The notes beneath the pieces are model-generated. The model was not told where the DNA came from, made no database searches, and saw only the letters and a list, made by a program, of their open reading frames with translations. A program made the translations under genes and the position numbers. From a virus (Duplodnaviria; Heunggongvirae; Uroviricota; Caudoviricetes), in the IMG/VR virus record IMGVR_UViG_2695420646_000016: a stretch of 9,717 nt of DNA. The stretch is one strand, 5' to 3'. Below, in pieces: positions 730-9,717 of the stretch (the first letter of the stretch is position 1; every line of letters starts with the position of its first letter).

Positions 730-3700
730 ATGGGTAAAGGCAGCAGTAAGGGGCATACCCCGCGCGAAGCGAAGGACAACCTGAAGTCCACGCAGTTGCT
801 GAGTGTGATCGATGCCATCAGCGAAGGGCCGGTTGAAGGTCCGGTGGATGGATTAAAAAGCGTGCTGCTGAACAGTACGCCGGTGCTGGACAGTGAGGGG
901 AATACCAATATATCCGGCGTCACGGTGGTGTTCCGGGCCGGTGAGCAGGAGCAGACACCGCCGGAGGGATTTGAATCATCCGGCTCCGAGACGGTGCTGG
1001 GTACGGAAGTGAAGTACGACACGCCGATTACCCGGACCATCACGTCGGCAAACATCGACCGTCTGCGCTTTACCTTCGGTGTGCAGGCACTGGTGGAAAC
1101 CACCTCAAAGGGGGACCGGAATCCGTCGGAAGTCCGCCTGCTGGTTCAGATACAGCGTAATGGTGGCTGGGTGACGGAAAAAGACATCACCATTAAAGGC
1201 AAAACCACCTCGCAGTATCTGGCCTCGGTGGTGGTGGGTAACCTGCCGCCGCGCCCGTTCAATATCCGGATGCGCAGGATGACGCCGGACAGCACCACAG
1301 ACCAGCTGCAGAACAAAACGCTCTGGTCGTCATACACCGAAATCATCGATGTGAAACAGTGCTACCCGAACACGGCACTGGTCGGCGTACAGGTGGATTC
1401 GGAGCAGTTCGGCAGCCAGCAGGTGAGCCGTAATTATCATCTGCGCGGGCGTATTCTGCAGGTGCCGTCGAACTATAACCCGCAGACTCGGCAATACAGC
1501 GGTATCTGGGACGGAACGTTTAAGCCAGCATACAGCAATAACATGGCCTGGTGTCTGTGGGATATGCTGACCCATCCACGCTACGGCATGGGGAAACGTC
1601 TTGGTGCGGCGGATGTGGACAAATGGGCGCTGTATGTCATCGGCCAGTACTGCGACCAGTCAGTGCCGGACGGCTTTGGCGGCACGGAGCCGCGCATCAC
1701 CTGTAATGCGTACCTGACCACACAGCGCAAGGCGTGGGATGTGCTCAGTGATTTCTGCTCGGCGATGCGCTGTATGCCGGTATGGAACGGGCAGACGCTG
1801 ACGTTCGTGCAGGACCGACCATCAGATAAGGTGTGGACCTATAACCGCAGTAATGTGGTGATGCCGGATGATGGCGCGCCGTTCCGCTACAGCTTCAGCG
1901 CCCTGAAGGACCGCCATAATGCCGTTGAGGTGAACTGGATTGACCCGAACAACGGCTGGGAGACGGCGACAGAGCTTGTTGAAGATACGCAGGCCATTGC
2001 CCGTTACGGTCGTAACGTCACGAAGATGGATGCCTTTGGCTGTACCAGCCGGGGGCAGGCGCACCGCGCCGGGCTGTGGCTGATTAAAACGGAACTGCTG
2101 GAAACGCAGACCGTGGACTTCAGCGTGGGTGCGGAAGGGCTTCGCCATGTACCGGGGGATGTCATTGAAATCTGCGATGATGACTATGCGGGTATCAGCA
2201 TCGGCGGGCGCGTGCTGGCGGTGAACAGCCAGACCCGGACGCTGACGCTCGACCGTGAAATCACGCTGCCATCCTCCGGTACCACGCTGATAAGCCTGGT
2301 TGACGGAAGTGGCAATCCGGTCAGCGTGGAGGTCCAGTCCGTCACCGACGGCGTGAAGGTAAAAGTGAGCCGTGTTCCTGACGGCGTTGCCGGATACAGC
2401 GTGTGGGGGCTGAAGCTGCCGACGCTGCGCCAGCGCCTGTTCCGCTGCGTGAGTATCCGTGAGAACGATGACGGCACGTATGCCATCACCGCCGTGCAGC
2501 ATGTACCGGAAAAAGAGGCCATCGTGGATAACGGGGCGCACTTTGACGGCGACCAGAGCGGCACGGTGAATGGTGTCACGCCGCCAGCGGTGCAGCACCT
2601 GGCCGCAGAAGTCACTGCAGACAGCGGGGAATATCAGGTGCTGGCGCGATGGGACACACCGAAGGTGGTGAAGGGCGTGAGCTTCCTGCTCCGTCTGACC
2701 GTAACAGCGGACGACGGCAGTGAGCGGCTGGTCAGCACGGCCCGGACGACGGAAACCACATACCGCTTCAGGCAACTGGCGCTGGGGCGTTACACGCTGA
2801 CGGTCCGGGCGGTAAATGCGTGGGGGCAGCAGGGCGATCCGGCATCGGTATCGTTCCGGATTGCGGCACCGGCAGCGCCTGTCACTATTGAACTGATACC
2901 AGGGTATTTTCAGATAACAGCGGTCCCGAAACTGGCTGTATATGACCCGACGGTGCAGTTTGAGTTCTGGTTCTCGGAAAAGCGGATTATCGATATCAGG
3001 CAGGTTGAAACCAGCGCGCGTTATCTTGGTACGGCGCTGTACTGGATAGCCGCCAGTAGCAATATTAAGCCGGGTTATGATTATTACTTTTATATCCGCA
3101 GCGTGAACACCGTTGGTAAATCGGCATTTGTGGAGGCCGTTGGTCGGGCGAGCGATGATGCGGAAGGTTATCTGAATTTTTATAAAGGGTTGATCAATAA
3201 AACGCATCTCGGCAAGGAACTGCTGGAAAACTTTGAGCTGACGGAAGATAACGCCAGCAAACTGGAGGAGTTTTCGAAAGAGTGGAAGGACGCCAACGAT
3301 AAATGGAATGCCATGTGGGGCGTCAAAATTGAGCAGACCAAAGACGGCAAACATTATGTCGCGGGGCTTGGCCTCAGCATGGAGGATACGGAGGAAGGCA
3401 AACTGAGCCAGTTCCTGGTTGCCGCTAACCGTATCGCGTTTATTGACCCGGCAAACGGGAATGAAACGCCGATGTTTGTGGCGCAGGGCAACCAGATATT
3501 CATGAACGACGTGTTCCTGAAGCGCCTGACAGCCCCCACTATTACCAGCGGTGGCAGTCCTCCGGTATTTTCCCTGACATCAGACGGAAAGCTGACCGCT
3601 AAAAATGCGGATATCAGTGGTAGTGTGAATGCGAACTCAGGAACGCTCAACAATGTCACGATTAACCAGAACTGTACGATTAAGGGCATGCTGGAGGCGA

Positions 3701-4143
3701 CTCAGGTCAGAGGTGACTTCGTTAAAGCTGTATCCAAATCATTTCCGAAACAGGCTGGTACGTGGGGTAACACGGAAACACCAAACGGGACGGTTACAGT
3801 CACCATCAGCGATGATCATAACTTTGACCGTCAAATCATTATTCCGCCCATTATCTTTAACGGAATAGCGTATAGCGATCCGGGAAGTGGTAATAACCCG
3901 GGAGGTACAAGATACACGGGTTATGGTTTTGAAGTTCGCAAAAACGGTGTATTAATCGCATCCAGAGAAACTAAAGGGGCCATTCCCGGTAGCTACAGTG
4001 CGGTTATTGATATGCCGAGTGGCAGGGGAAGCGTCACTCTGGAGTTTAAGGTTTTCCATAAAGGCAATCAGTGGGCAGGTAATATCACCGACTGTACGGT
4101 GATTGTGACCAAAAAAGCCGCTTCCGGCATCAGTATTCGTTGA
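730..4143 (+). CDS. J: Host specificity protein J (central tail fibre / tail tip), 1137 aa
   Basis: Long ORF with ATG at 730 preceded by GGAG at 718-721. N-terminus [34 protein letters not shown]... and most of the length match lambda gpJ as I recall it. The last ~150 aa differ from lambda J and the DNA becomes more AT-rich. Stop TGA at 4141-4143. Confidence 0.95.
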
Positions 4144-4212: not shown

Positions 4213-4812
4213 ATGCGTAAACTTTATGCCGCCATTTTGTCCGCAGCCATTTGTCTGGCCGTATCCGGTGCGCCTGCATGGGCGTCTGAACATCAGTCCA
4301 CGCTGAGCGCGGGGTATCTTCATGCCCGGACGAACGTTCCCGGCAGTGATGATCTGAACGGGATTAACGTGAAATACCGTTATGAGTTTACGGACACACT
4401 GGGGCTGGTGACGTCATTCAGCTATGCAGGAGACAAGAATCGCCAGCTTACCCGTTACAGCGATACCCGCTGGCATGAAGATTCCGTGCGTAACCGCTGG
4501 TTCAGCGTGATGGTGGGGCCGTCTGTGCGCGTGAATGAATGGTTCAGCGCGTATGCGATGGCGGGTATGGCTTACAGCCGTGTGTCGACTTTCTCCGGGG
4601 ATTATCTCCGCGTAACTGACAACAAGGGGAAAACGCACGACGTGCTGACCGGAAGTGATGACGGTCGCCACAGCAACACGTCTCTGGCGTGGGGAGCTGG
4701 CGTGCAGTTTAACCCGACCGAATCCGTGGCCATTGATATTGCTTATGAAGGCTCCGGCAGTGGCGACTGGCGCACTGACGGTTTCATCGTGGGTGTCGGT
4801 TATAAGTTCTGA
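4213..4812 (+). CDS. lom: Outer membrane protein Lom (Ail/Lom family beta-barrel; lysogenic-conversion moron), 199 aa
   Basis: SD gagagg at 4202-4207, ATG at 4213. Signal-peptide-like N-terminus [24 protein letters not shown] followed by SEHQ. Alternating aromatic/hydrophobic beta-strand pattern and C-terminal ...GVGYKF typical of outer-membrane barrels. Sequence matches lambda Lom as recalled. Confidence 0.9.
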
Positions 4813-4866: not shown

Positions 4867-4876
4867 TGGGGTGAAT

Positions 4877-7810
4877 ATGGCAGTAAAGATTTCAGGTGTA
4901 CTGAAAGACGGCACAGGAAAACCGGTACAGAACTGCACAATCCAGCTGAAAGCAAAACGTAACAGCACCACGGTGGTGGTGAACACGCTGGCCTCAGAAA
5001 ATCCGGATGAAGCCGGGCGTTACAGCATGGACGTTGAGTACGGGCAGTACAGCGTTATTCTGTTGGTGGAAGGATTCCCGCCGTCACATGCCGGGACCAT
5101 CACCGTGTATGAAGATTCTCAACCCGGTACGCTGAATGATTTTCTCGGTGCCATGACGGAGGATGATGCCCGTCCGGAGGCACTGCGCCGTTTTGAACAG
5201 ATGGTGGAAGAGGTGGCGCGTAACGCGTCCGCAGTGGCACAGAACACGGCAGCCGCGAAGAAGTCAGCCAGTGATGCCAGCACATCTGCCAGTGAGGCGG
5301 CAACCCATGCGACTGATGCTGCAGACTCAGCACGCGCAGCCAGCACGTCAGCCGGACAGGCCGCGACGTCGGCTCAGGAGGCTTTTTCCAGCGCAGGAAC
5401 GGCATCAGCAAAAGCCTCTGAGGCATCAAAAAGTGCTGCCGCTGCAGAGTCCTCAAAAAGCGCGGCGGCTACCAGTGCCGATGCGGCGAAAACGTCAGAA
5501 ACGAATGCGGCAGCGTCACAACAATCAGCAGCCACTTCTGCATCCACCGCGACCACGAAAGCGTCAGAAGCTGCCTCCTCAGCCCGGGATGCGTCGGCTT
5601 CAAAAGAGGCGGCAAAATCATCAGAAACGAACGCATCATCAAGCGCCAGTAGTGCCGCTTCCTCGGCAACGGCGGCAGGAAATTCCGCGAAGGCGGCAAA
5701 GACGTCTGAGACAAACGCTAAGTCCTCTGAAACGGCAGCGGAACAGAGTGCCTCAGCTGCGGCAGGCTCAAAAACAGCGGCTGCATCATCTGCCAGTGCC
5801 GCGTCAACAAGTGCCGGGCAGGCCTCAGCCAGTGCCACCGCCGCCGGAAAATCGGCAGAAAGTGCTGCATCGTCCGCTTCAACAGCCACAACGAAGGCTG
5901 GCGAAGCCGCTGTACAGGCCAGCGCAGCAGCGAGGTCTGCTTCCGCAGCGAAGACATCCGAGACGAACGCGAAAGCGTCGGAAACCAGCGCAGAATCCTC
6001 AAAAACGGCTGCCGCATCGTCCGCCAGTTCGGCGGCGTCATCGGCATCATCTGCGTCTGCTTCAAAAGATGAGGCGACCAGACAGGCGTCAGCAGCAAAG
6101 GGCAGCGCCACGACGGCATCCACGAAGGCGACAGAGGCAGCTGGCAGTGCGACGGCGGCAGCTCAGAGCAAAAGTACGGCGGAATCCGCGGCAACGCGCG
6201 CCGAGACAGCGGCAAAACGGGCAGAGGATATTGCATCCGCCGTGGCGCTTGAGGATGCGAGCACGACGAAAAAGGGGATAGTACAGCTCAGCAGTGCGAC
6301 TAACAGCACTTCCGAGTCACTGGCGGCAACGCCAAAAGCCGTTAAGGCCGCGTATGAGCTGGCTAACGGGAAATACACCGCACAGGATGCAACGACAGCA
6401 CAGAAAGGGATAGTTCAGCTTAGCAACGCGACCAACAGCACATCTGAAATGCTGGCGGCAACGCCAAAGTCGGTAAAGACAGCCTATGACCTTGCTAACG
6501 GGAAATATACTGCTCAGGACGCTACGACAGCACAAAAAGGAATTGTCCAGCTCAGTAGTGCAACCAACAGCGCATCTGAAACGCTTGCCGCGACACCGAA
6601 AGCAGTGAAAGCAGCTAATGATAATGCGAATGGTCGGGTACCTTCTGCCCGTAAGGTGAATGGTAAGGCGCTTTCAGCGGATATAACACTGACGCCGAAA
6701 GATATTGGTACGCTTAACTCAACAACAATGTCGTTCAGCGGTGGTGCTGGTTGGTTCAAATTAGCAACGGTAACCATGCCACAGGCGAGTTCTGTTGTTT
6801 CAATTACGTTGATTGGTGGCGCGGGATTTAACGTGGGGTCACCTCAACAGGCAGGTATATCTGAACTTGTTTTGCGTGCAGGTAATGGTAATCCGAAGGG
6901 GATTACTGGTGCTTTATGGCAGCGCACATCGACAGGGTTTACAAATTTTGCCTGGGTCAATACATCTGGTGATACTTACGATATTTACGTTGCAATCGGA
7001 AATTATGCGACTGGTGTAAATATTCAATGGGATTATACCAGTAATGCCAGCGTGACGATTCATACGTCACCAGCATATTCTGCTAATAAGCCGGAAGGGT
7101 TAACGGACGGTACAGTTTATTCACTCTATACGCCATCAGAGCAGTTTTATCCGCCTGGCGCACCAATCCCGTGGCCATCGGATACCGTTCCGTCTGGTTA
7201 TGCCCTGATGCAGGGGCAGACTTTTGACAAATCTGCCTACCCGAAACTTGCAGCCGCTTATCCGTCAGGCGTGATCCCTGATATGCGTGGCTGGACGATT
7301 AAGGGCAAACCTGCCAGTGGTCGTGCCGTATTGTCTCAGGAACAGGACGGCATTAAATCGCACGCCCACAGCGCCAGTGCATCCAGTACGGATTTGGGGA
7401 CGAAAACCACGTCGTCGTTTGATTATGGTACTAAGTCTTCAAATGCCACTGGTGACCATAACCACAGCCGAGGCACTATGGAAATTACCGGTACTCTCGG
7501 TTACTTCAGAAGTGATAGCGGTAATTTCTATACAGCAAGTGGAGCATTTACACTGGGTGGCTCTGCGCCAGCCCATGGATTTACGGGCTCTCAATTTACT
7601 TATGGTGTTCCTGTAAACTTTAACGCTTCCAGAACCTGGTCTGGTGCCACAAGCACTACAGGTAACCATGCGCACTCTGTTCCAATTGGTGCTCATGCGC
7701 ACTCCGTTGCGATTGGTTCACATGGACACACCATCACCGTTAACGCTGCTGGTAACGCGGAAAACACCGTCAAAAACATCGCATTTAACTATATTGTGAG
7801 GCTTGCATAA
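4877..7810 (+). CDS. stf: Side tail fibre protein Stf, about 977 aa, intact single ORF
   Basis: N-terminus [26 protein letters not shown]... matches lambda Stf. The track starts at GTG 4871, but ATG 4877 reproduces the lambda start and is preferred. Contains an Ala/Ser-rich shaft, 3 tandem 44-aa repeats and a C-terminal HxH-rich domain ending ...[18 protein letters not shown]. Stop TAA at 7808-7810 overlaps the tfa ATG. Confidence 0.9.
5230..6250 (+). repeat. Compositionally biased Ala/Ser/Thr-rich low-complexity region of Stf, with degenerate internal repeats
   Basis: About 340 codons dominated by GCN/TCN/ACN. Recurrent modules such as AKTSETNA(A/K)(A/S)SE at roughly 5490, 5617, 5700 and 5950. 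Both alternative frames and the minus strand stay open across it (track ORFs 5163..6281 and 5374..6123), a typical artefact of such bias. Confidence 0.75.
6263..6630 (+). repeat. Three tandem 132-bp (44-aa) repeats inside stf (phage tail-fibre repeat module)
   Basis: Units begin near 6263, 6395 and 6527: T(T/A)(K/Q)KGIVQLS(S/N)ATNS(T/A)SE(S/M/T)LAATPK(A/S)VK(A/T)AY(E/D)[11 protein letters not shown]. The third unit diverges after ...AANDNANG. The conserved Gly codon recurs at 6275, 6407 and 6539, giving an exact 132-nt period. Confidence 0.85.
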
Positions 7811-8394
7811 TGGCATTCAGAATGAGTGAACAAGCACGGACCATAAAAATTTATAATCTGCTGGCCGGAACTAATGAATTTATTGGTGAAGGTGACGCAT
7901 ATATTCCGCCTCATACAGGTCTGCCAGCAAACAGTACCGATATTGCACCGCCAGATATTCCGGCTGGCTTTGTGGCTGTTTTCAACAGTGATGAGGCATC
8001 GTGGCATCTCGTTGAAGATCATCGGGGTAAAACGGTTTATGACGTAGCTTCCGGCGACGCGTTATTTATTTCTGAACTCGGCTTATTACCGGAAAATGTT
8101 ACCTGGTTATCGCCGGAAGGGGAGTTTCAGAAGTGGAACGGCACAACCTGGGTGAAAGATGCAGAAGCAGAAAAACTGTTCCGGATCCGGGAGGCGGAAG
8201 AAACAAAAAACAACCTGATGCAGGTAGCCAGTGAGCATATTGCGCCGCTTCAGGATGCTGCAGATCTGGAAATTGCAACGGAGGAAGAAACCTCATTGCT
8301 GGAAGCCTGGAAAAAGTATCGGGTGTTGCTGAACCGTGTTGATACATCAACTGCACCTGATATTGAGTGGCCTACGAACCCTGTCAGGGAGTAA
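7810..8394 (+). CDS. tfa: Tail fibre assembly protein Tfa (tail-fibre chaperone), 194 aa
   Basis: ATG at 7810 overlaps the stf stop (taATGg), implying translational coupling. SD gtgagg at 7796-7801. N-terminus [53 protein letters not shown] matches lambda Tfa as recalled. Stop TAA at 8392-8394. Confidence 0.92.
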
Positions 8395-8441
8395 TCATTG
8401 GGATTATGCCGCAGCACGTCTTAAGCAAGAACGTGCTGCGG
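8245..8441 (+). repeat. Direct repeat copy A: 3' end of tfa plus downstream hairpin
   Basis: 8251-8394 aligns to 9289-9432 with about 15 mismatches in 144 bp by manual count. The following ~47 bp, including the hairpin, is also conserved with copy B. Confidence 0.85.
8409..8441. terminator. Perfect 11-bp-stem hairpin between convergent tfa (+) and the methyltransferase gene (-); candidate bidirectional terminator or RNA element
   Basis: ccgcagcacgt (8409-8419), 11-nt loop, acgtgctgcgg (8431-8441). A T-run (8452-8457) follows on the + strand but is 10 nt from the stem, so terminator function is uncertain. Confidence 0.45.
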
Positions 8442-8448
8442 TTGGATG

Positions 8449-9117
8449 CTATTTTTTCCCTGAAGCGGAAAACATTACTACAGTACCTTGAACCTTGGTT
8501 TTAACATTCTCGAAATGCTCTGAGAGTATATGTGTTAAGCCTTCTTCGGAATCTTTTGTGTTTGAAAAGATGCCTTTCTGATTGTAAATGCGCATCAGTT
8601 TTTGACCGAAGCTATTGTGCACAACTCCATCGCCAAGAATTGTGGCTCCGTATAGAGTTCCATCGTCAGTTAAGGCCTGCGCCGCATTGCGTATTACACA
8701 GCTTTTTGTAGATATATTTCCAGGCAGGCAGTGAAGAAGGTAAAACATGGAAATGGAATCAAATTGACCATGTAACGCCGCGGGATAAGGTTCAAAAACA
8801 TCATGGCTAATTTTATGTTTAATTTTTGATTCCCCAGCCCTTGTAGATGCCGCGTTCAGGCTAGCTTCGTTCAAATCCATTAAAGATATCAGACTACTCT
8901 CAGGTACGTGAGTAAGGTAAAACCCAGTTCCAACACCAATATCCAGATGGTTGTTACCTACATGTTCCAGAAAGTGTGGAAGAAGGTGTTCCTTTGTAGG
9001 ACATCCCCATGCAAGCCGATTTGATACTCCCAAAACCCACCAGTCATAAAGCTTTAGGGTAAGTGGTGTGTAAATTTTAGCCCCATCATCTGTGTTTTTT
9101 TTCATTGATTTCACCAT
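8449..9117 (-). CDS. Class I (Rossmann-fold) SAM-dependent methyltransferase, substrate unknown; AT-rich moron
   Basis: 222-aa ORF with stop TAG at 8449-8451. SAM-binding motif I LDIGVGTGF (hh-D-h-G-x-G-x-G), acidic post-I residue in ISLMDLNE, motif II-like QFDSISMFYLLHCLP, motif III-like LTDDGTLYG. About 38% GC versus about 55-65% in the tail genes. The start may be the second Met (9105), which has a GGTGA SD 5 nt upstream; Met at 9117 has none. Confidence 0.75.
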   Translation of the reverse strand: MVKSMKKNTDDGAKIYTPLTLKLYDWWVLGVSNRLAWGCPTKEHLLPHFLEHVGNNHLDIGVGTGFYLTHVPESSLISLMDLNEASLNAASTRAGESKIKHKISHDVFEPYPAALHGQFDSISMFYLLHCLPGNISTKSCVIRNAAQALTDDGTLYGATILGDGVVHNSFGQKLMRIYNQKGIFSNTKDSEEGLTHILSEHFENVKTKVQGTVVMFSASGKK

Positions 9118-9282
9118 GTTATAGTTTTATTTGTGAATTAAATCAATTATGGCGATGAATTACAAGGGGTTAAATGCTGCCGCAGCATAGCGATATTGAA
9201 ATAGCCTGGTATGCTTCGATACAGCAGGAGCCGAATGGCTGGAAGACCGTCACCACACAGTTCTACATCCAGGAATTCAGTG

Positions 9283-9432
9283 CCACTGCAGGATGCTGTA
9301 GATCTGGAAATCGCAACGGAGGAAGAAAGATCGTTGCTGGAGGCATGGAATAAATATCGGGTATTGTTGAATCGTGTTGATACATCAACTGCACCTGATA
9401 TTGAGTGGCCTGCAAATCCTGTCAGGGAGTAA
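9283..9432 (+). pseudogene. Tail fibre assembly protein C-terminal fragment (tfa remnant), direct-repeat copy B
   Basis: Encodes ...[49 protein letters not shown], matching the last ~49 aa of the Tfa at 7810-8394. No Tfa N-terminal domain; the upstream part of track ORF 9211..9432 has no Tfa similarity. Same stop context gagtaatcattggg. Confidence 0.75.
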
Positions 9433-9480
9433 TCATTGGGATTATGCCGCAGACACGTCGTATGCAGGAACGTGCTGCGG
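9283..9480 (+). repeat. Direct repeat copy B: tfa 3' end plus degenerate copy of the hairpin
   Basis: Aligns to 8245-8441. The hairpin arms are imperfect here (ccgcagacacgtcg ... aacgtgctgcgg). Confidence 0.85.
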
Positions 9481-9546
9481 CTAGTTTGTGAGCTTTCGAT
9501 AGTGGTTGTTATTTTTGCCCTTATTTGTTCCGGAGGCCATGGTTCA

Positions 9547-9717
9547 ATGGTCCGTCTGCCCCCTGTGGTGATGTCAGCAAAATCAGCCACTGCGCGAACC
9601 ACAATAGCCCGGGAAGATGCTGAAGATCACCAGGTAAAGCTATCAGCGCAGAAACTGGAAGAACTGCTCGCATCAATGGTTAAGGATGAGGTTGATCGCA
9701 ATGATGGGATTTATTGA
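9547..9717 (+). CDS. Hypothetical small protein, 56 aa, function unknown
   Basis: ATG at 9547 preceded by a strong SD GGAGG (9532-9536). Translates as MVRLPPVVMSAKSATARTTIAREDAEDHQVKLSAQKLEELLASMVKDEVDRNDGIY, stop TGA at 9715-9717. Charged, probably helical C-terminal half. I cannot place it in a family from memory. The track's longer 9436 start lies inside repeat copy B and lacks an SD. Confidence 0.4.
   Translation: MVRLPPVVMSAKSATARTTIAREDAEDHQVKLSAQKLEELLASMVKDEVDRNDGIY

Follow-up and report, generated by a model that had tools for sequence, protein, structure and literature searches.

The cluster of His-x-His (HxH) motifs near the C-terminus of the side tail fibre (Stf) encoded here is very probably the metal-binding core of a receptor-binding tip of the T4 gp37 type, carried by the Stf of a lambdoid prophage. 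The window, by which we mean the whole stretch of DNA analysed (9,717 nt; IMG/VR record IMGVR_UViG_2695420646_000016), is, according to its ORF list and a Pfam scan, a lambdoid prophage tail module with the genes I, J, lom, stf and tfa, all on the + strand, as is every feature located below. The ORF list and Pfam place gpI at 37-669, gpJ, recognised by seven J-specific Pfam domains, at 730-4143, and the Ail/Lom protein Lom, also assigned by Pfam, at 4213-4812. The stf gene (4871-7810; 979 codons from GTG) has the features expected of a lambda-type Stf, namely an N-terminal phage_tail_N domain (PF08400, E=7.4e-72, residues 3-136) and a position downstream of J and lom in the same order as in lambda, and it also matches Phage_fiber_2 three times and Collar (E=6.5e-12). 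As the lambda Stf begins MAVKISG, translation of stf probably starts with the ATG at 4877 rather than the GTG at 4871; residue numbers used here count from the GTG at 4871, and all would be lower by 2 with the ATG start. Long low-complexity stretches are present in Stf outside the tip.

DNA like that of the window is present in most complete Escherichia coli genomes, and at least 80% of the stretch from stf to the end of the window is carried by 355 of 5426 of them. Downstream of the tail module, the 3' end of tfa is present in a second copy and cargo has been inserted. The duplicated part of tfa raised the idea of an invertible tail-fibre segment of the Mu Gin or e14 Pin type, which was rejected as the copies are direct, and a search for inverted repeats of at least 30 nt found none. 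The motifs could be structurally meaningful and stf nevertheless be a relic in a defective prophage from which no fibre is made, given that the window shows only the tail module, with the duplicated tfa end and cargo behind it, and that stf is frameshifted in laboratory lambda (PMC9659904; PMC7291167). We consider this rather improbable, because J, lom, stf and tfa are all full-length intact ORFs and no fewer than 11 complete genomes carry the stf tip at 100% identity.

Stf contains five HxH motifs, which account for 10 of its 14 His residues. Motif 1 (His831/His833, SHAHS, 7361-7369) aligns with T4 His883/885, motif 2 (His863/His865, DHNHS, 7457-7465) with T4 His915/917, motif 3 (His933/His935, NHAHS, 7667-7675) with T4 His980/982, motif 4 (His942/His944, AHAHS, 7694-7702) with T4 His989/991 and motif 5 (His951/His953, SHGHT, 7721-7729) with T4 His998/1000. 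The preliminary description of this DNA had quoted two strings, GDHNHSRG and [25 protein letters not shown], and both are present in the stf frame (residues 861-868, nt 7451-7474, and residues 931-955, nt 7661-7735, respectively). It had also counted five motifs in roughly 95 residues and placed them at 7440-7740. The number five is right, but the quoted strings hold only four motifs, spanning 91 residues and all within that interval, and the fifth lies upstream of it at 7361-7369, so that all five extend over 123 residues. ORFs in other frames and on the minus strand over 7287-7702 were considered and are without any support, and an Rfam scan of 7300-7800 gave no match.

The cluster is not due to chance, because shuffling almost never gives five motifs. 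With 20,000 shuffles per test, five were reached in none for the whole protein, in none for the last 300 residues and in one for the last 170 residues, the mean count being 0.18 to 0.64. Motifs 3-5 form a 9-residue tandem repeat, seen in the DNA as a 27-nt repeat at 7667-7724 that includes motif 4, and together with the low-complexity stretches elsewhere in the protein this could be taken to mean that the cluster merely reflects a short tandem repeat or a biased composition and plays no part in binding metal. This explanation is already disfavoured and is extremely improbable, since motifs 1 and 2 are outside the repeat, five motifs are hardly ever obtained by shuffling, the His residues are the most conserved residues while their neighbours vary, and they align with the metal ligands of a solved structure.

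That structure is the T4 gp37 tip. When the last 279 residues of Stf were compared with PDB sequences using phmmer, 2xgf_A was matched with E=1.3e-79 (query 46-279 to chain 15-242), a match that covers Stf residues 746-979 and with them the whole collar and needle; the only other match, to the short tail fibre 9cuy, was confined to the collar. In BLASTP, Stf 748-979 and T4 gp37 801-1026 share 64% identity (E=2e-75), distributed very unevenly, with 77% in the collar and descending arm, 80% in the ascending arm and C-terminal strand and 25% in the centre (867-925). Using the T4 domain limits of PMC6957217, where D11 (882-1009) is a needle inserted into the collar domain D10, the N-terminal part of the collar domain corresponds to Stf residues 758-829 (7142-7357; T4 gp37 D10, 811-881), which include the PF07484 Collar match at 763-810 (E about 1e-12). 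The needle and head inserted into it correspond, by alignment to 2XGF/T4 gp37, to residues 830-962 (7358-7756; T4 gp37 D11, 882-1009), and the C-terminal part of the collar to residues 963-979 (7757-7807; T4 1010-1026). In this last part two positions differ from T4 (NAENTV vs NTENTV), and the last residues, [16 protein letters not shown], are shared by Stf and T4 gp37. Seven HxH motifs occur in the sequence of the T4 needle (883, 915, 929, 966, 980, 989 and 998), and the five of Stf align one-to-one with those at 883, 915, 980, 989 and 998; counterparts of the head-proximal 929/931 and 966/968 are absent from Stf.

Likeness to the T4 gp37 tip had earlier been put forward as an analogy. The match to 2XGF, together with the alignment of every HxH motif to one in T4, shows that the reading as a T4 gp37-type metal-binding tip is grounded in homology and goes beyond analogy, and the tip displays all those defining features of the gp37/Stf tip family that can be tested. 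Phage_fiber (PF03335), which models a 14-residue HxH repeat, scored 13.7 bits on Stf (E=0.073, three stretches), below a cut-off of 20 bits that is the threshold of the model and not a structural criterion, and 35.1 bits on the T4 tip (six stretches); the lower sum may plausibly be put down to the smaller number of HxH repeats. A single-chain AlphaFold2 model of 746-979, made with a 69-sequence alignment, had a mean pLDDT of 45 and a pTM of 0.19, and a poor model is plausibly to be expected when one chain of an intertwined, chaperone-dependent trimer is modelled alone.

Conservation among homologues had been proposed as a check on the role of these His residues. Across 98 cluster representatives whose tip is intact and shares 53-100% identity with that of the window, all ten are 98-100% conserved (100% for motifs 1, 3, 4 and 5 and 98% for motif 2), and the earlier interpretation therefore stands. 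They are the most conserved residues in the representatives down to 53% identity, with varying neighbours, whereas conservation is 2% for the lone His902 and mean column identity is 7% for the head segment. Eight of the ten are also invariant or nearly so among the best 120 database proteins plus T4. Motif 2 had an apparent conservation of 85% in the first alignment, which is due to a real subclass of 18 homologues; of 122 close homologues, only these 18 lack it, and they have another class of head.

The number of HxH motifs in intact tips of the family ranges from four to eight, seven being the commonest, and hence the five found here are within the family range. Tips with more motifs are longer, a trend that agrees with a remark in the Bas63 study, where T4-like tips of Felixounavirus are described with six or seven di-His motifs and the authors suggest that the number may be proportional to needle length (PMC12609058). 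The commonest spacing of the motifs in the family is 32,14,X,14,9,9, with X = 35-56, and in the window it is 32,70,9,9. As 70 = 14+42+14, the needle appears to keep its seven-site length, and this suggests that the two head-proximal sites were lost by substitution rather than by deletion. Without gaps, their positions would be taken by G877/F879 and A919/R921, a placement that is to be read as probable, as it comes from the spacing and from an alignment running through a region of 25% identity. The flanking pattern N-x-S-x-T-[F/W]-S has been retained (NASRTWS in the window vs NHSHTFS in T4). By BLASTP, T4 G921 and F970, which are reported to pack together in the trimer core (PMC6957217), align with Stf G868 and W923. 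H929A and H931A are both lethal in T4 gp37 (PMC6957217), and as these essential residues are among the missing sites, the head-proximal part must be built differently.

Seven iron atoms are coordinated by the HxH His along the T4 needle (PMC6957217; PMC12609058), and in T4-type tips the chain doubles back at a small head to give a six-stranded needle (PMC12609058). In the structure that we infer for Stf, including its trimer geometry, the occupancy and identity of its metal, the packing in place of the two lost sites and its receptor, three Stf chains would form a collar (residues 758-829 and 963-979) by homology with 2XGF, and a long six-stranded beta needle would be inserted into it, each chain descending to a small head and then returning. 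The descending strand would contribute two sites (831/833 and 863/865) and the ascending strand three (933/935, 942/944 and 951/953). At each HxH motif, two His from each of the three chains would face the trimer axis, and the six would coordinate one metal ion octahedrally. With five motifs and one ion per motif in a trimer, five axial ions are therefore predicted per trimer. They would act as internal rivets that lock the register of the strands and stiffen a thin fibre that has only a small hydrophobic core of the usual kind. Packing without metal would hold the distal third of the needle, which would end in an exchangeable, receptor-contacting head.

The metal would most likely be Fe2+, as iron is the metal in T4. 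The same architecture could hold another metal, Zn2+, Ni2+ or Co2+, according to what is available during folding, since a sequence cannot identify the metal and octahedral His6 sites accept several divalent ions. The T4 short tail fibre gp12, which binds Zn2+ at a His-coordinated site, provides a precedent, and the match to 9cuy is also to a short tail fibre, though only in the collar. A metal other than iron nevertheless seems unlikely, as iron is reported at all HxH sites of the nearest solved homologue, which shares 77-80% identity with Stf near the motifs (PMC6957217; PMC12609058). Iron in such fibres has also been proposed to have a part in receptor recognition by mimicking siderophore-bound iron, the 'Ferrojan horse', and thus not to be purely structural; it is a published hypothesis that cites the HxH motifs of gp37 and lambda (PMC11705849 citing Bonnain 2016). 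For the tip described here this is scarcely credible, because by homology the ions would be buried on the trimer axis, the sites nearest the receptor-binding head are the two that have been lost, and the receptors reported for the T4 and lambda fibres are OmpC or LPS rather than siderophore receptors (PMC6957217; PMC7291167).

The variable, His-free head segment (residues 867-925, 7469-7645) replaces the T4 stretch that includes 929/931, 966/968 and the receptor-binding head. It is unlike the OmpC/LPS-binding head of T4 (25% identity) or of lambda and instead resembles the fibres of Felixounavirus, and when the needle and head were used to search the PDB no solved structure like the head segment was found. 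The same search, with needle and head alone, returned mycobacterial L,D-transpeptidases (E about 0.12-0.27), which were rejected as chance matches because such values exceed any reasonable threshold. Only 15 of 5426 complete E. coli genomes, O104:H4 strains included, have the head segment, 14 of them with an identity of at least 99%. It is also present, with 75-77% nucleotide identity, in Felixounavirus phages, many of them isolated on O157:H7, and in one T4-like phage, and the fibre of the Felixounavirus Ro111lw shares 70% protein identity over a 119-residue alignment that spans it. As the corresponding part of T4 gp37 binds the receptor (PMC6957217), segment 867-925 is most likely an exchangeable head that sets a receptor specificity different from that of T4.

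Taken jointly, these features may point to a distinct sub-architecture of the gp37 needle, in which the full seven-site length is kept, the two head-proximal iron sites have given way to metal-free packing around G877/F879 and A919/R921, and a rare head module circulates through temperate lambdoid prophages, such as those of E. coli O104:H4, as well as the virulent Felixounavirus phages and one or more T4-like phages. We put this forward tentatively, the odds being somewhat against it as a whole. If it is true, a fibre with a suitably compensating core could do without the metal sites next to the head, and the head would represent a separate receptor specificity.

The preliminary description had also pointed to an adjacent Tfa chaperone, and this is borne out. 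The gene for the tail fibre assembly chaperone, tfa (7810-8394), has a start codon that overlaps the stf stop codon, and its product matches PF02413 (E=4.8e-44) and is homologous both to the lambda Tfa (94% identity) and to T4 gp38 (29% identity, E=3e-17). The C-terminal part of this product is also similar to the Mu Tfa (5YVQ_B, E=1e-8), and the lambda Tfa has been modelled on 5YVQ (PMC7291167). This neighbour would act as a chaperone of the gp38/Tfa type and fold the Stf tip. The preliminary description had further suggested that a metal-stabilised needle may be what calls for such a chaperone. Lambda Tfa replaces gp38 in folding gp37 (PMC9659904 citing Montag 1989), and fibre and chaperone are known to move together as a module (PMC9659904; PMC7291167). 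Hence, given the homology of Tfa and the literature on replacement of gp38 and on module exchange, the co-occurrence of fibre and chaperone is well supported. The pairing of Stf/Tfa with gp37/gp38 is a long-published case of module exchange.

The T4 gp37 tip (2XGF) is the closest of the known systems, with five HxH motifs at equivalent positions, the same 32 and 9,9 spacings, an identical last 16 residues and a homologous partner chaperone (gp38 for Tfa). It differs in having seven motifs, the two nearest the head having become non-His in the window, and in a head that is unrelated in sequence (25% identity) and probably has a different receptor. It is also the tip of a myovirus long fibre, whereas that of the window is on the side fibre of a lambdoid siphovirus. 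Stf/Tfa of lambda (Ur-lambda) resembles the window in the order J, lom, stf, tfa, in the N-terminal domain PF08400, in the collar, in the last 25 residues ([25 protein letters not shown]), which are identical, and in Tfa (94%). However, the lambda Stf has eight HxH motifs and a longer, different head region, and is 774 residues long, compared with 979 residues and three Phage_fiber_2 repeats in the window. Residues 578-774 of the lambda Stf have been modelled on 2XGF (PMC7291167) and the HxH motifs are reported to be conserved in lambda (PMC11705849).

Tips of Felixounavirus (Ro111lw, wV8, HY02, EC6 and O157 typing phages, with Bas63 examined by cryo-EM) share the His-free head segment and flanking HxH motifs, but these are virulent myoviruses and not lambdoid prophages. 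The Ro111lw fibre has four HxH motifs, a different C-terminal end and a divergent collar, the Pfam Collar model finding no match in the stretch scanned. The study of Sf14, another phage whose fibre matches the tip in the window, reported no homologues of the Mu-type chaperone. Spike proteins of contractile tails (P2 gpV, Mu gp45, Sf14 gp47 and the puncturing apex of Bas63) are similar in that one HxH per chain supplies six His to one axial iron, but this is a single site at a membrane-piercing tip and the proteins are not homologous to Stf.

The iron-binding HxH needle of T4 gp37 was reportedly solved in 2010, by Bartual. The HxH iron needle, the modelling of the lambda Stf on 2XGF, the substitution of Tfa for gp38 and the presence of HxH motifs in lambda are all already published, and an identical tip sequence is already in public databases. 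The finding is thus correct but ordinary, the structure being well known and not new, and all that is mildly new is the five-site needle of apparently full length, whose distal part is free of His and whose head is rare and widely exchanged. Its value is chiefly for annotation, in that the collar, the needle, the five predicted metal sites and the exchangeable head can be assigned at residue level. The head variant, which is rare in E. coli genomes and also occurs in phages isolated on O157:H7, could aid the engineering of fibre specificity, as it shows which parts of the needle are constant and which are swapped. RefSeq genome records name Stf only as 'phage tail protein' or 'prophage tail fiber N-terminal domain-containing protein'.

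In the fibre tip, the variable, His-free head segment (7469-7645, + strand), which lies between the descending and ascending arms of the needle, is rare in E. coli: of 5426 complete genomes only 15 carry it, among them those of O104:H4 strains, in which it is 100 % identical. The segment was also found at 75-77 % nucleotide identity in virulent phages of the genus Felixounavirus, many of which have O157:H7 as isolation host, and in one T4-like phage. It appears to be a module that has been exchanged across three phage morphotype lineages.

In E. coli O104:H4 2009EL-2071 (NC_018661.1, locus L004, 3579-6952), a tip identical to that in the window is carried by a shorter Stf of 930 residues, and in this prophage tfa is followed directly by potB with no methyltransferase cargo, so that one and the same tip is found in different prophage contexts. 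In a subclass of the close homologues (P0033 and 17 others), which have yet another type of head, HxH motif 2 of the descending strand is missing, and the 'core' HxH motifs are therefore not universal.

Downstream of tfa, a class I SAM-dependent methyltransferase gene (8449-9117, - strand; phrog_2132, a PHROG of unknown function) sits between the two copies of a 171 nt direct repeat (8244-8414 and 9282-9452, 90 % identical to one another). The repeat is a duplication of the 3' end of tfa, and a leftover tfa fragment remains as an ORF of 73 codons (9211-9432). The GC content of the methyltransferase gene is lower, at about 0.38-0.45 compared to about 0.44-0.51 in the flanks, and the gene looks like cargo inserted 3' of tfa. 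An invertible fibre segment was also considered and rejected, because the repeat copies are direct and a search for inverted repeats of 30 nt or more found none.

A match to the Rfam family IS009 (RF02111) at 8153-8351 (+ strand), scoring 225.7 bits against a gathering score of 117, lies wholly inside the tfa coding sequence, in its 3' half. Either the family describes a candidate small RNA that has been annotated inside the tfa genes of prophages, or it may have been built on coding sequence.

The ORF at 9436-9717 (+ strand) matches the tail-fibre-related PHROGs phrog_7703 and phrog_1141, and may be part of a second fibre-related module. In matching E. coli genome records, a DUF4376 protein is among the features around this position. 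The ORF reaches the last base of the window and its listed translation includes no stop codon, hence it probably continues beyond the window.

Within stf, a 132 nt tandem repeat (6270-6615, + strand; 2.6 copies, 77 % match) corresponds to three Phage_fiber_2 (PF03406) repeats, whereas the lambda Stf sequence includes a single unit of this type. The shaft (window about 5200-6250, about residues 110-460) is of low complexity and rich in Ala, Ser and Thr, which accounts for several long ORFs that overlap it in other frames or on the minus strand (e.g. 5163-6281, +, and 5374-6123, -) and are almost certainly artefacts. Read from the GTG at 4871 in the ORF list, stf begins MNMAVKISG (4871-4879 onwards), while the N-terminus of lambda Stf is MAVKISG. 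The ATG at 4877 is probably the actual start, in which case residue numbers shift by 2.
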